A DNA stretch of 64,000 bases from Promethearchaeia archaeon (GTDB taxonomy: Archaea; Asgardarchaeota; Lokiarchaeia; Sigyniarchaeales; SOKP01), in assembly GCA_029856045.1 (NCBI GenBank), contig JAHQWG010000047.1, positions 160,001-224,000 on the forward strand. Direction: 5' to 3'. Position 1 is the first letter of the stretch, and the number at the start of each line of letters is the position of its first letter. Made by a program: the position numbers and the translations under genes. The notes beneath the pieces are model-generated. The model had not been told where the DNA came from, ran no database searches, and saw only the letters and a list, made by a program, of their open reading frames with translations. Below are positions 34,332-56,280 of the stretch, one piece after another.

Positions 34332-34937
34332 TTAATTTTTTTCTTTCAATTTAGCCATTTTATTAACTACTTTTTTGATAGCTCTTAGACCTTCTTCATC
34401 TTTCTCAATACCTTTTTTTCCTAGATCTTTCGACCATAAGCAAGCACCTAAATTTGCTCCAAAAGCACCACCAGAAACCGTTATTATGCCATTTTGTATA
34501 TAAAAGTCCAAAATTGTTCTAATGGCAGGTTCTTGACCTCCGTTCCTATCTCCCCCAACAGCTAACGCTATTCCATTCTTATTCCAGAAAATTTCAGGTT
34601 TTTTGGCTACTAATGCTCTACAACGGTCCATAACTGCTTTTAATTGTGCGGATAGATTCCCTTGAAATACTGGAGTTCCAAATAAAAAATATTTTGCGTT
34701 TTCTAACTTAGGATAAAGCTCCTGTAAATCGTCTTTTTGTATACAACCCTTTTTCTCCCTAATACAATAATCGCAATGGGTACAAAAACCAATTTTCTTA
34801 CCTCTGACAGTCCAAAATTCTGTTTCGAATCCAAATTTCTCAGTAGCATAATTTAAGGCATATTTTATGGAGAATTCTGTAGCTTGATTTCTCGGACTGC
34901 CGCATATTCCTAATAACAAGTTTTTATTTTCAACCAT
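34332..34937 (-). CDS. Iron-sulfur flavoprotein (Isf/flavodoxin-like)
   Basis: GSPR, CTHCDYC.....C, GTPVF.G, GGDRNGGQE. Confidence 0.9.
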   Translation of the reverse strand: MVENKNLLLGICGSPRNQATEFSIKYALNYATEKFGFETEFWTVRGKKIGFCTHCDYCIREKKGCIQKDDLQELYPKLENAKYFLFGTPVFQGNLSAQLKAVMDRCRALVAKKPEIFWNKNGIALAVGGDRNGGQEPAIRTILDFYIQNGIITVSGGAFGANLGACLWSKDLGKKGIEKDEEGLRAIKKVVNKMAKLKEKN

Positions 34938-35121: not shown

Positions 35122-36327
35122 ATGAAAGTAATTATTATTGGAAATGGAGTAGCAGGTACTTTTTCTGCTCAAAATATTATAAACATTGATAAGAGTGTAG
35201 ATATTAAAATAATAACTGAAGAGAAATATCCGTATTATTCCAGACCCAAATTACCTGAATTAATCTCTGAACAAGTATCAATCAACGATATTATCGTTTT
35301 TAAAGAAGATTGGTATAGGAAGAAAAATATAAAATTAATTTTAGCAAGGAAAGTTTTAGGAATTCATCCAAGACAAAAGCACCTCCTTCTTGAAGATCAA
35401 AAAGAATTCATTCAATATGATAAGTTAATTATTGCAACTGGAAGCAAACCTAATATTCCTCCAATTAAAAACGCAGTTGAACTATTAAAAAAAGGAGTTT
35501 TTACTTTACGCAATATTGATGATGCCATAGAAATACAGAATTATATTAAAGGAAATAAAGCTAAGAAGGCGATCATAATTGGGGGGGGGTTATTGGGTTT
35601 AGAATTGGCAAAACAAATCAAAAATTGCAATCTTGACACAACGATAGTTGAATTTTTTCCAAGGCTTTTACCTCGTCAATTAGACGATGAATGCGCAGAG
35701 ATGTTAAAAGCTGAAATTGAAAAAATGGGAATAAAAGTTATATTAAATGCTACAACTGAGGAAATTTTAGGAACTGATTCAGTTGAAGGAATAAAGATAA
35801 AGGATGGACCTGAAATTAAAGCCGATACTGTATTAATTCAAGCAGGAATAATACCAAGAACCGAACTAGCAGAAAAAGCAAAAATTCAACAGAATCGAGG
35901 TGTTATTGTCAATCAATTTTTACAAACAAGCGATAAAGACATTTTTGCTGTTGGTGATGTGATAGAATACAAATCTCAAACATGGGGGATAATTCCAGCA
36001 TGTATTGAGCAATCAAGAATTGTTGCAGCATCAGTTTTAAATAAAAAAGAGATTCAATATAAGGGAACTACTCCAAAAACCACTCTAAAAATTGTTGGAA
36101 TTAATTTAACATCTATAGGAATATTTGATCCTTCACAAGAAGAGGATATTGGATGGGAGATTCTAAAAAAAGTTGATCAAAATAATTGCTGCTATCAAAA
36201 ATTCGTTTTAAAGGATAATAAATTAAAAGGAGCAATTCTTTTTGGAGAAACAAAATCAATTCCATTTGTAAATAAGAATATAAATTCAAATGTTAATAAG
36301 GAAGAGATTAATAAATTATTAGAATAA
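35122..36327 (+). CDS. NAD(P)H:rubredoxin oxidoreductase-like FAD enzyme
   Basis: IIGNGVAG, Y.RP.L, ATGS, GGGLLGLE, TS..DIFAVGD; immediately upstream of rubredoxin. Confidence 0.88.
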   Translation: MKVIIIGNGVAGTFSAQNIINIDKSVDIKIITEEKYPYYSRPKLPELISEQVSINDIIVFKEDWYRKKNIKLILARKVLGIHPRQKHLLLEDQKEFIQYDKLIIATGSKPNIPPIKNAVELLKKGVFTLRNIDDAIEIQNYIKGNKAKKAIIIGGGLLGLELAKQIKNCNLDTTIVEFFPRLLPRQLDDECAEMLKAEIEKMGIKVILNATTEEILGTDSVEGIKIKDGPEIKADTVLIQAGIIPRTELAEKAKIQQNRGVIVNQFLQTSDKDIFAVGDVIEYKSQTWGIIPACIEQSRIVAASVLNKKEIQYKGTTPKTTLKIVGINLTSIGIFDPSQEEDIGWEILKKVDQNNCCYQKFVLKDNKLKGAILFGETKSIPFVNKNINSNVNKEEINKLLE

Positions 36328-36458
36328 AAACCAAAGTCCCTTTAAAAATAACACAATAAATATCTATTATTTTATTAATTTATAGTCTTAATATTTTTAA
36401 TATTTATTAATTTAAATTTCCTAATAATATATTAGAAAATATAAGAGGGGAAATAATT

Positions 36459-36593
36459 CTGGCAAAGTATGAATGTACGGCTTGTGGCTATATTTATGAC
36501 GAAGAAGTAGAAGGGACAAAATGGGAAGACCTCCCTGATGATTGGACATGCCCAGTATGCGGAGTAGGAAAAGATATGTTTGAAAAACTTTAA
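36459..36593 (+). CDS. Rubredoxin (44 aa, missed by track); CTG start
   Basis: (M)[43 protein letters not shown]; GAGGGG SD at 36445-36450. Confidence 0.93.
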
Positions 36594-36783
36594 AATTAAA
36601 ATTATTCCAAATTTTTTTTATTTTCTAAATTTTTTATTATTTTTCCTTTTAGTAATCTCACATGTCAATTGTATTATTTATAATTAAAAAAAAATAAATT
36701 TATAATCACTTTTTGAGTCTAATTAAATGTTATTCAAAGAAATTCAAAAAATCAATTAAATAAGAAAAAAAGGTGATAAAAAA

Positions 36784-37989
36784 ATGATTTATACTGAATT
36801 AATGAAGGATATTTATTACACAGGTTATGTAGATTGGGAGGTAAGAAATTTTCACGGATATTCTACACACAGGGGGTCATCATATAATGCTTATTTGGTA
36901 AAAGGAGAAAAAAATGTTTTGATAGATACGGTTAAACGTCCTTTTTTTAATTATTTCTTGGAGAATATAAAGAGCATCATTAATCCGGAAAAAATTGATT
37001 ATCTTATCATGAATCATATTGAAATGGACCATTCTGGCTCATTTCCATTAATCATTAAATATCTTCCAAACGCTCAAATTATAGCTTCTAAAAAGGGTGT
37101 TGAAATTTTAAGAGATCATTTTCATAAAGAAGTTGATGATGAAGTATTCAATAATATTCGAGCTGTGAAAGAAGGAGATACTTTAGATATTGGTAACGGT
37201 AAAAAATTTACATTTGTTCCAATCCCAATGATCCATTGGCCTGATTCAATGGTATCATTTATGACAGACGAAAATGGTAAAAACATTTTATTTTCAAATG
37301 ATGCTTTTGGACAACATTTCGCCACTTCCTCACGTTGGGATGATGAGAATGATTTTGACGTAATAATGGAAGAAGCGGTTAAATATTATGCAAATATTTT
37401 ACTTCATTTATCGAAACTGATCTCAAATGTTTTACCCAAAGTAGGTTCTTTGCCAATAGAAATTATTTGCCCTTCGCATGGAGTGTGTTGGAGGAAACAT
37501 GTAGGAGATATAGTTGAAAGGTATAAAAAGTGGTCAGCAGGAGACATTGATAATAAAACAGCAATAATTATATATGATTCAATGTGGGGAAGCACCGAAA
37601 TTATCGCAAAAGCCCTATACAAGGAATTGCAATATAGAGGGATAAAAGTGAAACGATATAAATTAACTAATGCAGACTATTCTGACGTAATAACAGAAGC
37701 TATGCTTTCAAAAGCAATTATTGTAGGAAGTCCAACTTTAAATAATGGAATGTATCCAACAGTGGCAGAATATGTCTGTTATCAGAAAGGTTTAAAGCCA
37801 ATGAATAAAATAGGACTAGCCTTTGGTTCGTATGGATGGGGTGGTGGAGCTGTGAAAGAAATTATTAAAGAGTTAGAAGCTTCTAAAATTGAAGTTTTAG
37901 ACGAACATATAGAAATTAAATTTGTTCCAAAGCCAGAAGATCTTAATTTCAAAAAGATTATCGATAAACTAATTGAGAAAATGGTATAA
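36784..37989 (+). CDS. fprA: Flavodiiron protein (FprA, class A)
   Basis: GSSYNAYL, NHIEMDHSG, HWPDS, SNDAFG, PSHG, flavodoxin domain YDSMWGST and FGSYGWGG. Confidence 0.95.
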   Translation: MIYTELMKDIYYTGYVDWEVRNFHGYSTHRGSSYNAYLVKGEKNVLIDTVKRPFFNYFLENIKSIINPEKIDYLIMNHIEMDHSGSFPLIIKYLPNAQIIASKKGVEILRDHFHKEVDDEVFNNIRAVKEGDTLDIGNGKKFTFVPIPMIHWPDSMVSFMTDENGKNILFSNDAFGQHFATSSRWDDENDFDVIMEEAVKYYANILLHLSKLISNVLPKVGSLPIEIICPSHGVCWRKHVGDIVERYKKWSAGDIDNKTAIIIYDSMWGSTEIIAKALYKELQYRGIKVKRYKLTNADYSDVITEAMLSKAIIVGSPTLNNGMYPTVAEYVCYQKGLKPMNKIGLAFGSYGWGGGAVKEIIKELEASKIEVLDEHIEIKFVPKPEDLNFKKIIDKLIEKMV

Positions 37990-38001
37990 AGGTTTTAAGA
38001 T

Positions 38002-39402
38002 ATGGATTTCAATTTAACAGACACTCAAAAAGAATTGCAAAAAAAAGCACAGGAATTTGCAATTAAGGAAATCTTGCCAGTAGCAGCTAGTTACGATGAA
38101 CATGGGAAATTTCCAATTGAAATTATTGAGAAAGCCTATAAGGCAGGTTTAGTGAATTTAGCAATTCCAAAAAAATATGGGGGACCTGGTTATGGTCTCT
38201 TAGAATCTGTAGTAGTTGTTGAGGAAATTGCTGCGGCTTGTCCCGGATTCGCAACATCCATATTTGCAAATAATTTAGGAGCAGAGCCAATAATTTTAGG
38301 AGGTAATGAAGAACAGAAAGATAGAATATTAGGAGAATTAGTAAAAAAATTTACTTTAATTTCTTTTGCTACCTCTGAACCTGGAATGGGTTCTGATGTT
38401 GCTGGAATTAATTGTCAAGCTCAAAAAGATGGAGAAGATTATATTTTAAATGGTACAAAGTATTGGATTACCAATGCAGGTTATGCAAAATATATTTCTC
38501 TATTTGCGACAACGGATCCAGCAAAAAAACATAAAGGAATATGTGCTTTTATTTTACCAACTAATTTAGTAGGAGTTAAAACAGGAAAACCAATTCCTAA
38601 ATTGGGGCATAGAGCATCGAATACCACTTCTGTGGTTTTAAAAAATGTGAGAATTCCAAAAGAAAATATATTGGCTCATCCAGGGAGAGGTTTTATTTTA
38701 GCAATGCAAACATTTGCTCACACTCGTCCAGCCATAGGAGCTTTTGCTACAGGTTTAGCAAGATCCGCTATGGAATATGTGATTGATTATGCAAAAAAAA
38801 GAGAGACTTTCGGAAGACCAATAGCAAATTATCAAGCTATTCAGTTCAAAATTGCAGAAATGTATAAAAATATTGAAGCTAGTCGATTATTAACCCATAA
38901 ATCAGCATGGGAGACAGATCAAGGGTTAGATAATACATTAAGTGCAGCATGTGCAAAAGCATTTGCCTCAGATGTTGCTATGCAAGTAGCTACTGAAGCT
39001 ATTCAAATAATGGGAGGTTACGGTTATATGAAAACATACCCATTAGAAAAGTTATTCAGAGATGCAAAACTATTTCAAATTTACGAAGGCACCTCAGAAA
39101 TCCAGAGAATAATTATTTCAAGATTTGTGATGAAACAATATAAACATGGAATGCCCAATTTATATGAACTCCCAAGAATTGAGGTAGAAAGAGAAGAAGA
39201 AGTTGAAATTCCGCCAATTTCATTAAAGACTAGTGAGGAACTGGGAGGAAAATACAGATGTACAGTGTGTGGATATATTTATGATCCTGTAAAAGGTGAT
39301 CCAGATAGTGGAATCTCTCCAGAAACTCCATTTGAAGAAATTCCAGATGATTGGCATTGTCCAGTATGCGGAGTTTCAAAGGATAAGTTTATAAAATTAT
39401 GA
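38002..39402 (+). CDS. Acyl-CoA dehydrogenase with C-terminal rubredoxin domain
   Basis: [31 protein letters not shown]; C-terminal [15 protein letters not shown]...WHCPVCG. Confidence 0.93.
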
Positions 39403-39426
39403 TTATTTTCTTGTAGGTGCGATAAA

Positions 39427-41085
39427 ATTACGGAAAAGAATGTATTCACATTTATAGTTGGGGGTAAAGCTGGTCAAGGTGTTAAAAAAGCAGGTTCAGT
39501 TGCTTCTCAACTTTTTATAAATAAGAGTCGTTTTGTATTTCAAATAGACGATTACATGAGTTTAATAAAAGGAGGACATAATTTCTCGATTGTTAGTACT
39601 TCTACTAGATGGATTAGTAGTCATTATATGAAAGCTGATCTAATTGTTAATTTTGATAAAAGAAGCTATGATAATCATATAGACCACCTTTCTGAAGGTG
39701 GTTTAATGGTCTATAATTCTGATATTAAAGGAAATATGGGTGGTATAGGTATTTCTTTAACAAGCGAAGCAAAAAGATTTCCTAATCCTAATTTAATGCT
39801 TGGAGTTGGTGCTATTGCTATATTAGGGGCGACCATTGGCGTTAATAAAACAGAGTTAAATGCATTAATAAAGAATGAATATTCTAAAGGTGTTAAAGAG
39901 AATATTTCTTATGCCAATATTATTTATGATATTGTTTATCCTATAATTGGAGGGAAATTCCAATTAGAAGGTGGATCTAAAAAAAGACCGAATATCTCGG
40001 GAAATCAAGCAATAGCATTAGGAGCAATAGCAGGTGGATTAGATTGTTATTACGCTTATCCTATGACACCAGCCACATCCATCCTACATTATCTTGCTGC
40101 AATAGCAGATGATTTTGGACTTGCAGTTATACATCCCGAAAATGAAATAGCAGTTATAAATATGGCTATAGGATCAACCTTTACTGGAGCGAGGTCAATG
40201 GTTGGTTCTAGCGGCGGAGGTTTTTCTTTGATGGCTGAGGGAATTTCATTAGCTGGTATAATCGAATCACCTGTATTAATTGTATTATCCATGAGACCTG
40301 GACCAGCTACGGGCGTTCCAACTTATACAGAACAAGGAGATTTAAATTTTGCTTTAAATGTGGGTCATGGGGAATTTTTACGCATCGTTGCTTCTCCAGG
40401 AACTATAGAGGAGGCATTTTTTCTTACAGCTCAAATGTTGGATTTAGTATGGAAGTTTCAAACTCCTGGAATATTACTCACAGAAAAACATTTATCAGAG
40501 AGTAGTATGACAGTCGATATAAATTTAAATGACACTATTTGGGCTGAACCACTGCTTTATAAAGATGGAGAATATAAAAGATATTTAGATACGAAGGATG
40601 GAATATCCCCCTTATTATTTCCACCATCAAAGGAAATACTCAAATGGAATAGTTATGAACATGATGAGTTTGGATTTACAACCGAAGATCCTCAATGGAT
40701 TAAAAGGATGCATGATAAACGAAATAAAAAGTTTAAATCATTAAAAAATTACCTTATGAAAAAAAAAACAATAAATATTTTTGGGGATAAGGGGCCAATA
40801 ATAATTACATATGGTTCAACGGTGATGAGCGTATTAGAAGCATTAAAGTATGGTAATATTGAGGCTAGAGTTGTACAACCAATTTTTTTGAGTCCGTTGC
40901 CTATTTGGGAGCTTGAAAAATTTAAAGACCAAGAAGTTATTGTTATAGAGCAAAGTGCTATAGGTCAATTTGCTAATTTACTTAAAGAAAATATGAATAT
41001 TCAATTAAAAAAAGTAATAAAGCAATACGATGGAAGACCTTTCGACCCAATAAAATTATCTAAAAAAATTAAGGATGTGGTATAA
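39427..41085 (+). CDS. korA: 2-oxoacid:ferredoxin oxidoreductase alpha subunit (gamma-alpha fusion); probable ATT start
   Basis: GGKAGQG lies upstream of the track ATG; in-frame stop at 39400, ATT at 39427 after AGGTG. YPMTP, ENEIA, RPGPATG.PT, GHGE present. Confidence 0.9.
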   Translation: MTEKNVFTFIVGGKAGQGVKKAGSVASQLFINKSRFVFQIDDYMSLIKGGHNFSIVSTSTRWISSHYMKADLIVNFDKRSYDNHIDHLSEGGLMVYNSDIKGNMGGIGISLTSEAKRFPNPNLMLGVGAIAILGATIGVNKTELNALIKNEYSKGVKENISYANIIYDIVYPIIGGKFQLEGGSKKRPNISGNQAIALGAIAGGLDCYYAYPMTPATSILHYLAAIADDFGLAVIHPENEIAVINMAIGSTFTGARSMVGSSGGGFSLMAEGISLAGIIESPVLIVLSMRPGPATGVPTYTEQGDLNFALNVGHGEFLRIVASPGTIEEAFFLTAQMLDLVWKFQTPGILLTEKHLSESSMTVDINLNDTIWAEPLLYKDGEYKRYLDTKDGISPLLFPPSKEILKWNSYEHDEFGFTTEDPQWIKRMHDKRNKKFKSLKNYLMKKKTINIFGDKGPIIITYGSTVMSVLEALKYGNIEARVVQPIFLSPLPIWELEKFKDQEVIVIEQSAIGQFANLLKENMNIQLKKVIKQYDGRPFDPIKLSKKIKDVV

Positions 41086-41929
41086 AATAGTGAAATTAGG
41101 AACTAATATCGAAAATACCTGGTGCCTAGGTTGCGGTAATTTTGGAATTTTAAATGCTTTCAAGAAAGCAATTGTTGAGCTTGAAGAAAAAGGAATTTCA
41201 CAAAATAATATTTTAATTGCTTCTGGTATTGGTTGTAGCGCAAAAATCTTTGATTATCTTAATCTCAGCGGTATTTATTCATTACATGGAAGAGATTTAG
41301 CTACAATAGAGGGAATTAAATTTGCCAATCCAAATTTAAAAACAATCACATTCTCAGGAGATGGAAATGCAATGGGCGAAGGTTTAACGCATTTACTATT
41401 TGCTGCAAAACGGAACGCAGATGTAACAATAATTATGCACAACAACGGTGTTTACGCCTTAACAACGGGACAATATACGCCGATTACTGAAAGAGGTTGG
41501 AAAGGACCTTCCACTCCCAAGGGAAGCGTTGAAGAACCTTTTAATGCTATATCTTTAGTTTTGGAAGCAGGAGCTACCTTCGTTGCTAGGTCCTATACAG
41601 CGAAAATACAGCACCTTACAGATATGATGGTTCAAGCGATAGAACATAAGGGTTTTTCTTTCTTAGAAGTTCTACAACCTTGTGTTAGCTATAATAATAC
41701 TTATAAATTATACAACGAAATTGTTGAAGAACTTGATGATATTCCTAAAAGCATTGAAGAAGCAAAATTATATGCAAAGAATAAAGATAAATTATTTATT
41801 GGAATATTTTATAGAACTGAGAAACCAACTTTTTGTGAGTTATTATATGGTGATCATAACCCAGTAGAGAAAAGGCAGTATAGAGAAGAGAGAATAAATA
41901 AAATAAAAAAAATATTAAATATTAAGTAG
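41075..41929 (+). CDS. korB: 2-oxoacid:ferredoxin oxidoreductase beta subunit (GTG at 41090 is a possible start)
   Basis: WCLGCG, SGIGCS, HGR, GDG, NNGVY.LT.GQ, LQPC. Confidence 0.92.
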   Translation: MWYKIVKLGTNIENTWCLGCGNFGILNAFKKAIVELEEKGISQNNILIASGIGCSAKIFDYLNLSGIYSLHGRDLATIEGIKFANPNLKTITFSGDGNAMGEGLTHLLFAAKRNADVTIIMHNNGVYALTTGQYTPITERGWKGPSTPKGSVEEPFNAISLVLEAGATFVARSYTAKIQHLTDMMVQAIEHKGFSFLEVLQPCVSYNNTYKLYNEIVEELDDIPKSIEEAKLYAKNKDKLFIGIFYRTEKPTFCELLYGDHNPVEKRQYREERINKIKKILNIK

Positions 41930-41974
41930 AATCGAAATTTTATTTTTTATTAAATAAATTTAGAGGTTCCTAAA

Positions 41975-42544
41975 ATGGATGTAAAAGAGGCAATAAATAA
42001 AAGAAGAGCGTATAGATCTCTTGATCCTATTAAAATTTCTGATGAATTAATACAAGATCTTGCAGAATCTGCACAATTGGCTCCATCTTGTATGAATAAA
42101 CAACCGTGGAGATTTATTTTTATTCATGATAAGAAAGTTTTAGAAAAATTATTTACTACATTAACATCGGGAAATAAATGGGTTGAAAAAGTATCTATGA
42201 TAATTGGTGTATTTAGCAATCCTAAAAATGATTGTATAATCGGAGAAAGATTTTATTATCTTTTTGATACTGGCATGGCTACAGCTTTTATTATATTAAG
42301 AGCTACTGAACTTGGGTTGATTGCGCATCCAATTGCTGGTTTTAATGAAGAGAAGGTCAAGAAAATTCTAGATCTTCCTGAAGAAATGAGATTAATTACA
42401 CTTGTGAATATTGGGAAACATTCTAAAGAAATAAATCCTAATCTTTCTGAAAGTATGAAGTTGGGAGAAAAACAACGCCCTCCGAGAAAATCAATTGATG
42501 ATTTTGTACATATTAATAAATATGACCCAAGTAAGGAAAAATAG
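41975..42544 (+). CDS. Nitroreductase family protein
   Basis: RRAYR, APSCMNKQPWRF, LRATELGL. Confidence 0.9.
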   Translation: MDVKEAINKRRAYRSLDPIKISDELIQDLAESAQLAPSCMNKQPWRFIFIHDKKVLEKLFTTLTSGNKWVEKVSMIIGVFSNPKNDCIIGERFYYLFDTGMATAFIILRATELGLIAHPIAGFNEEKVKKILDLPEEMRLITLVNIGKHSKEINPNLSESMKLGEKQRPPRKSIDDFVHINKYDPSKEK

Positions 42545-42562
42545 TTTTTAAGAGATTAAAAA

Positions 42563-44701
42563 ATGGAAAAAAGATTGTTGGATAAAAAAAAATTATCTCA
42601 AAATGATGAAATTACACATAATAAACTAATAAATGAGAAAAGTCCTTATTTACTTCAACATGCTGAAAATCCTGTTAATTGGTATCCATGGGGAAACGAA
42701 GCATTTGAAAAGGCACGAAAAGAAAATAAGCCAATATTCTTATCAATTGGATATTCTACTTGCCATTGGTGTCATGTTATGGCACATGAGTCTTTTGAAG
42801 ATACAGCAGTGGCAGAATTAATGAACGAAATCTTTGTTTCAATTAAAGTTGACAGAGAAGAGCGACCTGATATTGATAAGATCTATATGACTATATGTCA
42901 AATGATGACAGGTCAAGGGGGATGGCCACTTACGTTATTTTTAACTCCTGATAAAAAACCATTTTTTGCTGGAACCTATTTTCCTAAAGAAAGGAGATTT
43001 GGTCGAATAGGTTTGATAGAACTCATATTAAAAATAAAAGAGCTTTGGAAAATACAAAAAAACGATGTGTTAAGATCTGCAGATCAAATTACTTTTTCTT
43101 TACAAAATTTAGATTTTAAATCGCCCGGAGATAAACTTAACGAAAAAACCATTAAAAAAGCTTATAATCAATTATTGAGTCAATATGATAATAAAAATGG
43201 AGGTTTCAACAACGCTCCCAAATTTCCTACTCCACATAATCTTCTCTTTCTTTTAAGATTTTGGAAGCGTACTGGGAATAAAGAAGCTTTAGAGATGGTT
43301 GAAAATACCCTTCAAAAAATGAGGCTTGGTGGTATTTATGATCATATAGGATTTGGATTTCATCGATATTCTACAGATCCAGTTTGGCTTGTTCCCCATT
43401 TTGAAAAGATGCTCTACGATCAAGCTTTATTGGCAATTGCTTATACAGAAGCTTACCAAGCAACTAAAAAAAATATATACGCAAATACAGCTAAAGAAAT
43501 TTTTACTTATGTCTTACGTGATATGACTTCACCTGATGGGGGATTTTATTCAGCAGAGGATGCTGATAGTGAGGGTAAAGAAGGAAAGTTTTATGTATGG
43601 ACTATTGAAGAATTCCAACAAATACTTGAAGAGGAAGAAGAAGATTTAGCAAGAAAAATATTTAATTTAAAAAATCAAGGAAATTATTTAGAAGAAACAA
43701 CTAAAAAAAAGACAAGTCATAATATATTGCATCTTAAAGATTCATTGACCAACCTTTCTAAAGAATTAAACATTTCTGAAAAGGATTTAACATTTAGGAT
43801 AGAAAAAATTCGCGAAAAATTATTCAAAATTAGAGATGAACGAGTTCATCCCCATAAAGATGATAAGATATTAGCTGATTGGAACGGATTAATGATTGCT
43901 GCATTTGCTAAAGGAGCTCAAATTTTTGGCGATTCTATTTATTTAAATGTTGCAAAAAAAGCGGCAAATTTTATACTTTCAAATATGCGGAAACCAAACA
44001 ATAGATTATTACATCGATATAGAGAAGGAGATGCTGAAATTGATGCTTACCTAAATGATTATATCTTCTTAATATGGGGATTTATTGAATTATATGAAAC
44101 TAGTTTAGAAGTCACTTTTCTTAAGAATGCTCTGGAATTAAATAAAGAAGTAATAGATCATTTTTGGGATGATTCAGTAGGTGGTTTCTTTTTTACTGCC
44201 AATGATGGTGAGACACTTTTAACTCGTCAGAAAGAGATCTACGATGGAGCAATCCCATCAGGAAATTCTGTAGCTATGTTAAATTTATTAAGATTGAGTT
44301 ATTTAACTGGAGATCACGAGTTAGAAGAAAAAGCGGATATTTTAAGTAGAGTTTTTGCTGAACGAGTTAATAATTCACCGATTGCGCATACTCAATTAAT
44401 GGTTGCAGTTGATTTTAGCGTTGGTCCAACCTTTACAATAGTAATTGTTGGTGATGCTGAAGAAATTAATACGCAAGAAATGTTAGCATATATTCATAAT
44501 CAATTTCTCCCAAATATATCATTAATTCAGAGAAATATAAAACAGGTTCCTCCAGAAATCGATGTATTTATAAATTATATCCATAATTACAATAAAATAG
44601 ATAATAAAACTACTGCTTATATATGCACAAATAAAACCTGTAAACCTCCAATAACAGATGTCAATAAATTGTTAAAACTTATTAATCCAAGATGGAATTA
44701 A
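42563..44701 (+). CDS. YyaL/SPATA20-like thioredoxin-domain protein
   Basis: [47 protein letters not shown]. Confidence 0.93.
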
Positions 44702-45873
44702 AAGTTATGAATGGTATTTGGGATGTTAAATCCGATGTTGTGAAAAGAGGAGATAATAATAGAGATGTTTCGCCTTTAACTGGCAAAACAGGAAAGGATG
44801 AAAACGGTTTCACTCACTATGTATTCAGCAAAGTTTTATTTAATAATCCGTGGTATGTCATCCCTGATGATAACATTGAATTATTCGAGAAATTTTTAAA
44901 AGGAGGTTCAAGGCATTATCCATCCGATGGAAGCATACCTTGTGATATAGTTGCTAAGGAAACAAGAATAATTTTAAATAAAATAGTAGAAATCGCTAAT
45001 GACCCTAGCGATAAATATTATGAAGATGCGCGTAAAACATTAGAAAATGGTAAATATGCATTGGTTAGAGGGACTTTAAAATTATATTTAGGCAAATATG
45101 CTACGAGAGATTGGAGAAGAAAAAGATTTACTGATGATATTGACTTCTGGATTTTCAACATGGATTTATATGAGCACGTGTTAAAAGAAAATGGTTGGAA
45201 AAGGATATCAGATACAAAAGAATGGGAAAAACAAATTCAGTGGGTTAATCTTATTAGAAATGAAAGGGAAGCAAATATGCTTATTGCAGCAAATGATATA
45301 AACTTATTATTGGATTTCGGGTCAGGAGCTTATCTTGAAGGTACAAGCCTAAAGGCAATTTTTAGCAAAAAAATAAAAAGAGGTCATGATGTTGACCTTA
45401 GTGATTTATTAAATGTAGCCATAGTTAATGGATGCGATTATAAACATTGCGGAGAAAGGCTTAGAGAAGAAGAGTGGCTTAATGCTTGGATTGCATTTGA
45501 GGAGGCCGTTAATACAAGAAATACACGAACAACTTCGAATTTGATAACTCTTTGTCGATATTCGTTAGGAATTGCTGATCACTTAGAAAGGGTTGCAAAA
45601 TCGATAAATAAATATCATTATAAGATACTTGATAACTCTGAATATCCAGATAACGAATTAGAGAGAATATGTAGAATATCAATTCATTGGATTGAATTTC
45701 TTTCGTCTCATGGTCATAATAATACTCGGAAAATGCTTCATGATTATTTAATAGAGCAAAGAGATTTTAAATTTCAACATTCAAAAAATCTTAGAGCTTT
45801 TACTGAAAAAGTACTAAATCTTCTTAATTCTAAATATTCACATTTGAAGATTTTTTTTGAAATTGAAAATTAA
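44692..45873 (+). CDS. Hypothetical protein with a nucleotidyltransferase-like motif (ATG at 44707 is an alternative start)
   Basis: LVRGT...Y...R.TDDIDFW and K..R...D..D resemble AbiEii-type NTase motifs. Confidence 0.55.
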
Positions 45874-55221: not shown

Positions 55222-55614
55222 TTATTTTGATTTCCATAAACCGTGAATATTACAGTATTCTCTAGCCCAGAGTCCTTCAGTATCTGCTACTACAAATGTT
55301 GCTTTAGGTTCATCGCCTGGCTTAAGAAATTTCCTTTTATAGCAATTATCCTTGCAAATTAATTCTATCCATTCAATCCAATGCTCATCAGTCATTGGAT
55401 GAGCCATATCTGCAACAATTCCAATCGAAACAGTCACTTTATTCCCATCAATTTCTATATAAGGAACATGTTTTTCTCCTTTATAATCAGCGGTTTTTGG
55501 TTCCATTAATTTCATATCTTGTCCGCAACATACGAGAGTACCGCCTCCAGTATGTAGGACTTCAACAATATTACCACAAACTTCACATTTATAAATTTCT
55601 TTTAATTGAGTCAA
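55222..55614 (-). CDS. dfx: Desulfoferrodoxin (2Fe superoxide reductase)
   Basis: YKCEVCGN...CCG, EKHVP, HPM..EH.IEWI, YCNIHGLW. Confidence 0.95.
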   Translation of the reverse strand: MTQLKEIYKCEVCGNIVEVLHTGGGTLVCCGQDMKLMEPKTADYKGEKHVPYIEIDGNKVTVSIGIVADMAHPMTDEHWIEWIELICKDNCYKRKFLKPGDEPKATFVVADTEGLWAREYCNIHGLWKSK

Positions 55615-55695: not shown

Positions 55696-56280
55696 TTAAA
55701 ATTCTTCACATTTTTTTCGGTAGTTTGCTCTTGGATGATCACAAGCAGGGCACCTCCAATCTTCTGGTAATTCGTCCATCTCTACTTCATAACCACACTC
55801 CATACATACCCAAACAATCTTCTTCCCACGTTTGAAGAATGCATCATCACCGACTAGTTTTAAAAGCTTACCATAGCGTTCTGAGTGATGTTTTTCTGCA
55901 CGAGCAATGGATCTCAATCTGTTAGCAATTTCTGGATATCCTTCCTTTTTTGCAATATCTGCAAATCCGGGATACATTTCCTGCCATTCATAATTTTCTC
56001 CAGCAATTGCAGATTTTAAGTTTTCCTCGGTCGTTCCATAAGTTGTAGGTCCTGCAGCTTGAACTTCCAAATCATCAAAACTTTCTTCTTTTTTTAGATC
56101 TTGTAACATTCTATAATTCCATGTTGCGTGTTCTTTCTCTTGGTCAGCGGTTTCAATAAAAAATTTTGATATTAATACATACCCTTCTTTTTGTGCTATT
56201 TTAGAAAACATGGTATATCTCATTCTTGCTTGAGATTCGCCCATAAAGGCAACCATTAAATTTTGTACTGTTTTTTTCAT
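55696..56280 (-). CDS. rbr: Rubrerythrin
   Basis: AF.GESQA, EKEHA, GE.YE...MYP, E.HH, CMECG...CPAC.H. Confidence 0.95.

Follow-up and report, generated by a model that had tools for sequence, protein, structure and literature searches.

The stretch analysed here (the window: 64,000 nucleotides of contig JAHQWG010000047.1 from a Promethearchaeia archaeon, assembly GCA_029856045.1) contains an operon in which an acyl-CoA dehydrogenase (ACAD) with a C-terminal rubredoxin (Rd) domain, the protein ACAD-Rd, follows a flavodiiron protein (FDP). All sizeable ORFs from 35122 to 44701 lie on the + strand. The run opens with NADH:rubredoxin oxidoreductase (NROR), a small free Rd, a class A FDP (FprA), ACAD-Rd and the alpha and beta subunits of a 2-oxoacid:acceptor oxidoreductase (OFOR), all six present and co-oriented as the initial annotation had described them. 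The 12-bp gap it reported between the FDP stop and the ACAD-Rd start (37989 to 38002) is confirmed. The conserved core of this locus is the four-gene module NROR - Rd - class A FDP - ACAD, the last gene resembling medium-chain acyl-CoA dehydrogenase (MCAD), and it is situated in an oxidative-stress island of one Lokiarchaeia-type family.

NROR (35122..36327, +, 401 aa) possesses the pyridine nucleotide-disulfide oxidoreductase fold (Pyr_redox_2, PF07992, 2.4e-60; Pyr_redox, PF00070, 1.8e-21), a Rubredoxin_C domain (PF18267, 3.1e-15) and a rubredoxin 128 nt downstream. This free Rd (36459..36593, +) is about 44 aa long; its loop is shortened, and it has two Cys-x-x-Cys motifs (NCBIfam rubredoxin, 1.2e-15; PF00301, 50.8 bits). 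Its frame extends from stop to stop over 36411-36593 without any ATG, GTG or TTG. A GAGGGG site is followed 8 nt later by a CTG (36459) that is kept in the three species of the genus, and the equivalent codon is ATG or GTG in other genera; these two features indicate that the gene is real and uses a non-canonical start in this genome. CTG 36459 is probably that start, the alternative ATT 36456 not being kept (ACT in the sister species). The FDP (36784..37989, +, 401 aa) combines ODP/Lactamase_B (ODP, 2.9e-23) and Flavodoxin_1 (1.7e-17) without further domains, i.e. the class A architecture. The canonical di-iron ligand pattern (H78, E80, D82, H83, H151, D173 and H232) is invariant in 56 homologs, and FprA proteins of 72-79% identity are common across Asgard metagenome-assembled genomes (MAGs).

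ACAD-Rd (38002..39402, +, 466 aa) consists of three ACAD domains followed at the C-terminus by a Rubredoxin domain. Its ACAD core (aa 1-378, 38002..39135, +; Acyl-CoA_dh_N, _M and _1) finds its best solved-structure matches among MCADs (PDB 1UKW, 3MDD and 1EGE/1T9G), with 388 bits for 1UKW of T. thermophilus and 380-373 bits for pig and human MCAD. Matches to butyryl-CoA dehydrogenase and short-chain ACADs (Bcd/SCAD) are lower at 280-295 bits (5OL2_C 294, 1BUC 280). These scores place the ACAD closest to the medium-chain ACADs and not to butyryl-CoA dehydrogenase. The Trp equivalent to W166 of MCAD and a Glu at the position of MCAD E376 are retained. Glu362, in the motif Y-E-G-T, is invariant in 75 sequences, and E362, G363, T364, T157 and W155 are all invariant or nearly so. 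No NCBIfam equivalog reaches its cut-off for ACAD-Rd; the best resemblance is to AcrC (acryloyl-CoA reductase) with 373 against 640 bits.

The linker (aa 379-416, 39136..39249, +) opens with the conserved motif Y-x-H-x-M-P-N-L-x-x-L-P, followed by an acidic stretch. The rubredoxin domain (aa 417-463, 39250..39390, +) covers profile positions 1-47 of 47 of PF00301 (2.5e-23) and carries Cys420, Cys423, Cys453 and Cys456, so the complete rubredoxin that had been read from about 39245 is indeed there. With 86.6 bits for PF00301 in a search of the genome, it is one of only two full rubredoxin domains encoded there, both within this operon. ACAD and Rd are parted only by the 38-residue linker, and neither PF00766 nor PF01012 matches ACAD-Rd. 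The AlphaFold2 monomer of the protein has a pLDDT of 93 and a pTM of 0.82, with values of 61-69 in the linker and 84-93 in the Rd domain. Fused proteins and their truncated orthologs without Rd differ at 13 group-specific positions; several of these cluster at 30-37, and another is position 154 (Tyr in one group, Phe in the other), which adjoins the Trp equivalent to MCAD W166.

Genes for electron-transferring flavoprotein (ETF) have no match anywhere on the contig of the window. The source genome (3.34 Mb in 55 contigs, 100% complete by markers) possesses 12 ACAD-domain matches and has ETF genes on contigs C41, C32 and C55, beside other ACADs and amounting to at least two etfBA sets. The nearest other ACAD of the genome shares only 41% identity with the ACAD-Rd core; its gene adjoins etfBA on C32. 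EtfA and EtfB are not detected within 6 kb of the gene in any of 67 Asgard loci of the ACAD orthogroup (67/67). Because the genome encodes ETFs on three other contigs, "ETF-free" is a property of the locus and not of the organism; the lack of etf genes that had been noted holds for the window and its contig, but not for the genome.

In a protein search, ACAD-Rd of about 467 aa occurs in about 48 clusters of 68-78% identity, all from Asgard MAGs, besides many orthologs of 392-394 aa (72-75% identity) without Rd. The genome survey comprised 400 Asgard species genomes, queried with the last 100 residues or with the ACAD core, and the orthogroup was delimited at an identity of at least 70%. The full fusion is found in 30 of the 400 genomes, all within the family of the window (last-100-residue query). 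With the core as query, the orthogroup is present in 97 of the 400 genomes and in this one family only, with a breakdown of 96 of its 134 genomes and none of 266 elsewhere. It normally occurs in one copy per genome, either fused or non-fused. Many MAGs recorded as Hodarchaeota, Hermodarchaeota, Odinarchaeota or Thorarchaeota carry the orthogroup as well (loci L094, L101, L105, L117, L126, L128, L133 and others); set against the confinement to one family, either the labels of these records or the sampling does not match the family-level taxonomy.

For synteny, up to 20 kb around 29 fused genes were searched with the proteins of the window, and 24 of these loci were assessable. An orthologous FDP lies directly upstream of the fused gene in 11 of the 24, in three genera; NROR and/or Rd are upstream without FDP in six, and the remaining seven have no Rd, NROR or FDP neighbour. 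Of 58 species-level non-fused loci, 56 are assessable for FDP, and in 51 of these a gap of 13-25 nt separates the end of the orthologous FDP from the ACAD downstream; Rd is typically located about 1.37 kb upstream of the ACAD, with NROR beyond it. NROR orthologs precede Rd-FDP-ACAD in most related loci. The counts come from related genomes and hence are not independent, but they span about ten genera and about 80 species-level genomes, a strong synteny in support of a functional link between the ACAD and Rd/FDP. In the survey of synteny and domain architecture that had been suggested as a check, here made on Asgard genomes, the FDP-ACAD pairing is conserved (51/56 and 11/24). The Rd fusion itself, from which the link had first been drawn, is real but a minority state (30 genomes); most orthologs lack Rd yet occupy the same place after the FDP.

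Gene calls for three loci with truncated orthologs give the order NROR-Rd-FDP-ACAD or NROR...Rd-ACAD, in an island with genes for hybrid-cluster protein, superoxide reductase, rubrerythrin and a CitMHS transporter. Superoxide reductase and rubrerythrin genes also flank the FDP-ACAD pair in L020, L082, L083 and L084. In L083 (5743-6984), L107 and L121, a divergent FDP paralog of 413 aa (about 36% identity, weak FMN_red match) is located 179-245 nt upstream of the truncated ACAD, in place of the orthologous FprA. An NROR with its own C-terminal rubredoxin (444-451 aa) is present in L017 (6348-7682), L020 (3295-4641) and L082 (3827-5179). Some operons therefore possess three rubredoxin modules, i.e. 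NROR-Rd, free Rd and ACAD-Rd.

OFOR alpha (39427..41085, +, 552 aa from ATT; POR_N 6.5e-43, POR 1.6e-07) carries an N-terminal gamma-type domain, and OFOR beta (41075..41929, +, 284 aa; TPP_enzyme_C 5.8e-23, PFO_beta_C 5.7e-09) overlaps it by 11 nt. From the listed ATG at 39556 the gamma-type domain is truncated. The ATT at 39427, an AGGTG 7 nt upstream of it and the coding sequence before the first ATG are all conserved in two sister species (L051, L052), and only from this ATT does the protein reach the TIGR03710 cut-off (488.5 against 482.75 bits, profile positions 2-561 of 561), so that OFOR alpha appears to start there. The gene calls made initially are thus retained, with corrected starts for the free Rd (CTG) and OFOR alpha (the upstream ATT). 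Alpha, gamma-fused and above its cut-off, and the TPP-binding beta form a two-subunit 2-oxoacid:acceptor oxidoreductase of the OAFO_sf / KorAB-like type; beta has the expected Pfam domains and scores 257.5 bits for TIGR02177, just below the cut-off of 261.9.

OFOR alpha begins 24 nt past the ACAD-Rd stop, with which it is probably co-transcribed. An OFOR follows the ACAD only in the window and in two sister species (L051/L086 and L052/L085); the fourth species of the genus and all other genera examined (>75 loci) do not have it at the locus, and it cannot be counted as part of a conserved module. The complete genome of this fourth species (G148; L053, L165) has NROR, Rd, ACAD-Rd, nitroreductase and DUF255 genes at the locus, without FDP or OFOR, and the only FDP that it encodes elsewhere has 44% identity. 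Within one genus, the operon thus differs in its content of FDP and OFOR genes.

Downstream of OFOR beta follow tightly a nitroreductase-family gene (41975-42544, +; Nitroreductase, 1.1e-20) and a DUF255 thioredoxin-like gene (42563-44701, +; Thioredox_DsbH, 6.3e-80), both probably in the same transcription unit. The co-oriented run ends with an ORF of 393 aa (44692-45873, +) that matches no Pfam family and has a 10-nt overlap with the DUF255 stop. On the other side, a gene resembling NADPH-dependent FMN reductases (34332..34937, -; FMN_red, 2.7e-26) is divergent from the operon and takes the same relative position beside NROR in relatives (L051, L053, L055, L058, L059, L061, L063 and others). 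The island of the window contains, farther downstream, CitMHS and OsmC genes, a desulfoferrodoxin-type superoxide reductase (55222-55614, -; Desulfoferrodox, 1.2e-23) and a rubrerythrin (55696-56280, -; Rubrerythrin, 6.6e-34). A scan for sigma-70 promoters and terminators yielded fewer sites than shuffled sequences; such a scan does not apply to an archaeon, and the result was disregarded. DNA of this stretch is present in salt-marsh and marine-sediment metagenomes.

The nearest non-Asgard relatives of ACAD-Rd are ACADs of 445-451 aa with 61% identity, from Desulfobacterales and a Spirochaetota MAG. They belong to a bacterial family, encoded also on one unassigned metagenomic contig, whose members share 57-61% identity with the Asgard core (L152-L164, e.g. 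L153:5998-7338, and P0122 at L080:180-1535). As in the Asgard fusion, a linker motif (Y-x-x-x-M-P-x-L-x-x-L-P) leads into a C-terminal Fe(Cys)4-type domain, but this metal domain is a short rubrerythrin-type RUBY_RBDX and not a full rubredoxin. No FDP, Rd or NROR is found near the gene in the single annotated locus (L153), where a universal stress protein and a Cu/Zn superoxide dismutase are encoded nearby. The fused and truncated Asgard proteins and their bacterial relatives group in a single clade with a support of 99 and a long stem. Its internal order differs between the trees: one quick tree nests the truncated clade beside a fused protein, the other shows a polytomy with a monophyletic fused clade.

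Since the truncated Asgard orthologs keep the start of the linker and then end, the sequences suggest that the fusion is ancestral and the truncation derived, an order that the trees leave unsettled. The simplest scenario would be an ancestor with a C-terminal iron-cysteine domain, an inter-domain transfer, for which the bacterial ACAD-metal-domain family is the likely partner, and, for the larger part of the Asgard family, a subsequent loss of this domain. Other unusual ACAD architectures in the representative search are tandem double ACADs of about 770 aa (P0121, P0123, P0125, P0127 and others), a 686-aa fusion of an ACAD with an ETF domain (PF01012; P0224) and a 663-aa fusion with a glyoxalase-fold domain (P0248).

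The closest known system is the bacterial butyryl-CoA:oxygen oxidoreductase (BOOR), reported for Fusobacterium nucleatum and butyrogenic Firmicutes in PMC12288474; the Fusobacterium chain from butyryl-CoA dehydrogenase/rubredoxin to FDP that the initial annotation named is this system. According to PMC12288474 and PMC12630350 (ref. 70), both citing Bystrom & Wolthers (Biochemistry 2024), the BOOR protein BCR joins butyryl-CoA dehydrogenase to the C-terminal part of EtfA and to rubredoxin. It forms an alpha4beta4 complex with the adjacently encoded FDP, and BOOR couples butyryl-CoA oxidation to O2 reduction in vitro (same sources). One BCR-type protein was recovered in our search (P0161, L081): it has 638 aa, with ETF_alpha at 437-517 and Rd at 586-631, and is followed 4 nt later by an FDP. 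The absence of such an ETF-derived domain from the Asgard ACAD-Rd, as had been stated, is borne out by this comparison.

Tight FDP-ACAD spacing, the oxidative-stress setting, a tethered one-electron carrier and the lack of ETF neighbours all argue for an ACAD that feeds electrons, as a second donor, into the O2 sink of rubredoxin and FDP, a role to which we give an even chance. The ACAD would oxidise a straight-chain, probably short-to-medium acyl-CoA to the enoyl-CoA, and its FAD would hand on electrons one at a time, in the fused proteins to the tethered rubredoxin and in the truncated orthologs to the free one. Rubredoxin would then reduce the FMN and the di-iron site of the FDP by direct transfer, perhaps within a physical complex, and the FDP would reduce O2 to water. 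The outcome would be an acyl-CoA-fuelled O2 sink beside the NADH-NROR-Rd-FDP route, bypassing ETF and functionally analogous to bacterial BOOR, with OFOR as a genus-specific addition and at most an optional feeder.

Several features weigh against such a donor role of the ACAD. The ETFs of the genome could serve this ACAD as well, and the residues that we take to form the ETF-docking pocket of MCAD are mostly conservatively retained in it. The extra FAD-binding EtfA domain that BOOR has between ACAD and Rd has no counterpart here. Thirteen of the 24 fused loci lack an adjacent FDP, and five genomes with ACAD-Rd possess no cognate FDP but only paralogs of 32-44% identity; ACAD-Rd can thus persist without its presumed partner. 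Within the fused subgroup NROR and Rd are steadier neighbours than FDP, which fits a reverse flow of electrons equally well.

This reverse flow is the main rival, although on balance an unlikely one. Electrons would pass from NADH via NROR and Rd to the tethered Rd and the ACAD flavin, and an enoyl-CoA would be reduced independently of ETF and without bifurcation, the FDP being only a competing, O2-dependent outlet of the Rd pool. By established redox potentials the path from NADH over Rd to crotonyl-CoA is downhill or near-neutral, and the best NCBIfam resemblance of the protein, below the cut-off, is to a reductase, AcrC. The alternative stays alive because some loci and the five genomes mentioned keep ACAD-Rd with NROR and Rd but without a cognate FDP: NROR and/or Rd stand upstream of ACAD-Rd without FDP in 6/24 fused loci, one of them in the 100%-complete G148 (L053) of the same genus, which has no orthologous FDP, and in L084 Rd is directly followed by a non-fused ACAD. 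A plain fermentative reductase, however, leaves unexplained the dominant arrangement of FDP before ACAD with its 13-25 nt gap, as well as the oxidative-stress island, and it would waste energy that the ETF-linked ACADs of the genome could conserve. The sole characterised ACAD-Rd system, moreover, runs from acyl-CoA to O2 (PMC12288474).

It is distinctly improbable that the arrangement reflects co-regulation only, i.e. an ordinary ETF-dependent ACAD of beta-oxidation or fermentation placed among oxidative-stress genes, with the Rd domain as an accessory (redox sensor, protection or minor outlet). ETF genes in the genome are compatible with this explanation, as are the seven fused loci devoid of Rd, NROR and FDP neighbours, the loss of the Rd domain in about two thirds of the orthologs, which still occupy the locus, and the leakage of electrons from ACADs to O2 (PMC12288474, citing DuPlessis et al. 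1998). On the other hand, etfAB is found near none of the 67 loci, but etf genes do adjoin other ACADs of this genome; about ten genera keep the FDP-ACAD gap at 12-25 nt; the proteins of the bacterial sister clade retain a related Cys4 domain; and for a one-electron carrier tethered to an ACAD, a role other than that of electron outlet or inlet is difficult to envisage.

Still less credible is the full chain proposed initially, an integrated module with OFOR as the source of acyl-CoA from a 2-oxoacid, ACAD-Rd as the dehydrogenase of this acyl-CoA and the FDP as the O2 reductase. The short distance from ACAD-Rd to OFOR alpha, with probable co-transcription, and the same arrangement in the two sister species speak for it, but the adjacency is limited to these three species of one genus, which makes the 2-oxoacid leg weak. 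The MCAD-like ACAD fits this leg poorly: acetyl-CoA and succinyl-CoA, which OFORs commonly form, are no substrates for ACADs, and branched-chain OFOR products normally go to ACADs of the IVD/IBD type. The OFOR also requires its own low-potential acceptor. The conversion of 2-oxoacid to acyl-CoA is therefore dropped as a conserved part of the module.

Taken further, the donor role of the ACAD would make the module a family-wide and independently evolved archaeal acyl-CoA:O2 oxidoreductase, a picture that we offer tentatively and at somewhat below an even chance. An MCAD-like ACAD, mitochondrial MCAD being among its closest solved relatives, would be wired via tethered or free rubredoxin to the FDP with ETF bypassed, so that "strict anaerobes" would burn fatty-acyl-CoA electrons on O2, and the ACAD would have been exchanged with Desulfobacterales, sulfate-reducing neighbours in the sediment. 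If true, rubredoxin could drain an ACAD flavin directly, and an Asgard lineage that includes cultured Lokiarchaeia would have a specific, family-wide O2-scavenging route. O2 tolerance and the handling of reducing equivalents from fatty and amino acids in this lineage bear on scenarios of syntrophy and eukaryogenesis. Fused and truncated orthologs at the same locus would provide a natural comparison for the effect of carrier tethering.

Among known systems, the canonical NROR-rubredoxin-FDP chain for O2/NO reduction (Clostridium, Moorella, Desulfovibrio) has all three of its components present, co-oriented and intact at the Asgard locus. The locus differs by a conserved fourth gene, that of the ACAD, which follows the FDP at 12-25 nt and in this genome brings a second, tethered rubredoxin. 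With MCAD, for which ETF is the acceptor, the Asgard ACAD shares the best full-length match of its core, the catalytic Glu and the Trp equivalent to W166; the docking of ETF by helix C and a Leu195 pocket of MCAD is given in general terms in PMC3546729. In contrast to MCAD, the Asgard protein has a linker and a C-terminal rubredoxin, is never ETF-adjacent and is located inside an Rd/FDP operon.

The likeness to BOOR lies in an ACAD with C-terminal rubredoxin beside a co-oriented class A FDP, in an anaerobe and in a context of oxidative stress, and in the proposed electron flow from acyl-CoA via Rd and FDP to O2. In a literature search of incomplete coverage, no published description of an archaeal FDP-ACAD(-Rd) module was found; if the proposed flow is true, archaea would here have their first counterpart of BOOR, in a simpler form without the ETF-derived flavin domain. 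The Asgard ACAD-Rd has no ETF_alpha domain and is accordingly shorter than P0161 (466 against 638 aa), the gene order is reversed with the FDP before the ACAD, the two FDPs are 30% identical, and the archaeal operon includes NROR and a free Rd, while most of the Asgard orthologs lack the Rd domain. The ACAD core is 40% identical to that of P0161, and BCR falls outside the Asgard clade in two trees. This identity, the MCAD-like core and the far position of BCR in the trees indicate that the Asgard fusion arose independently of BOOR and shares no common descent with the BCR core. By these comparisons, the Asgard module represents an independent and simpler solution than BOOR.

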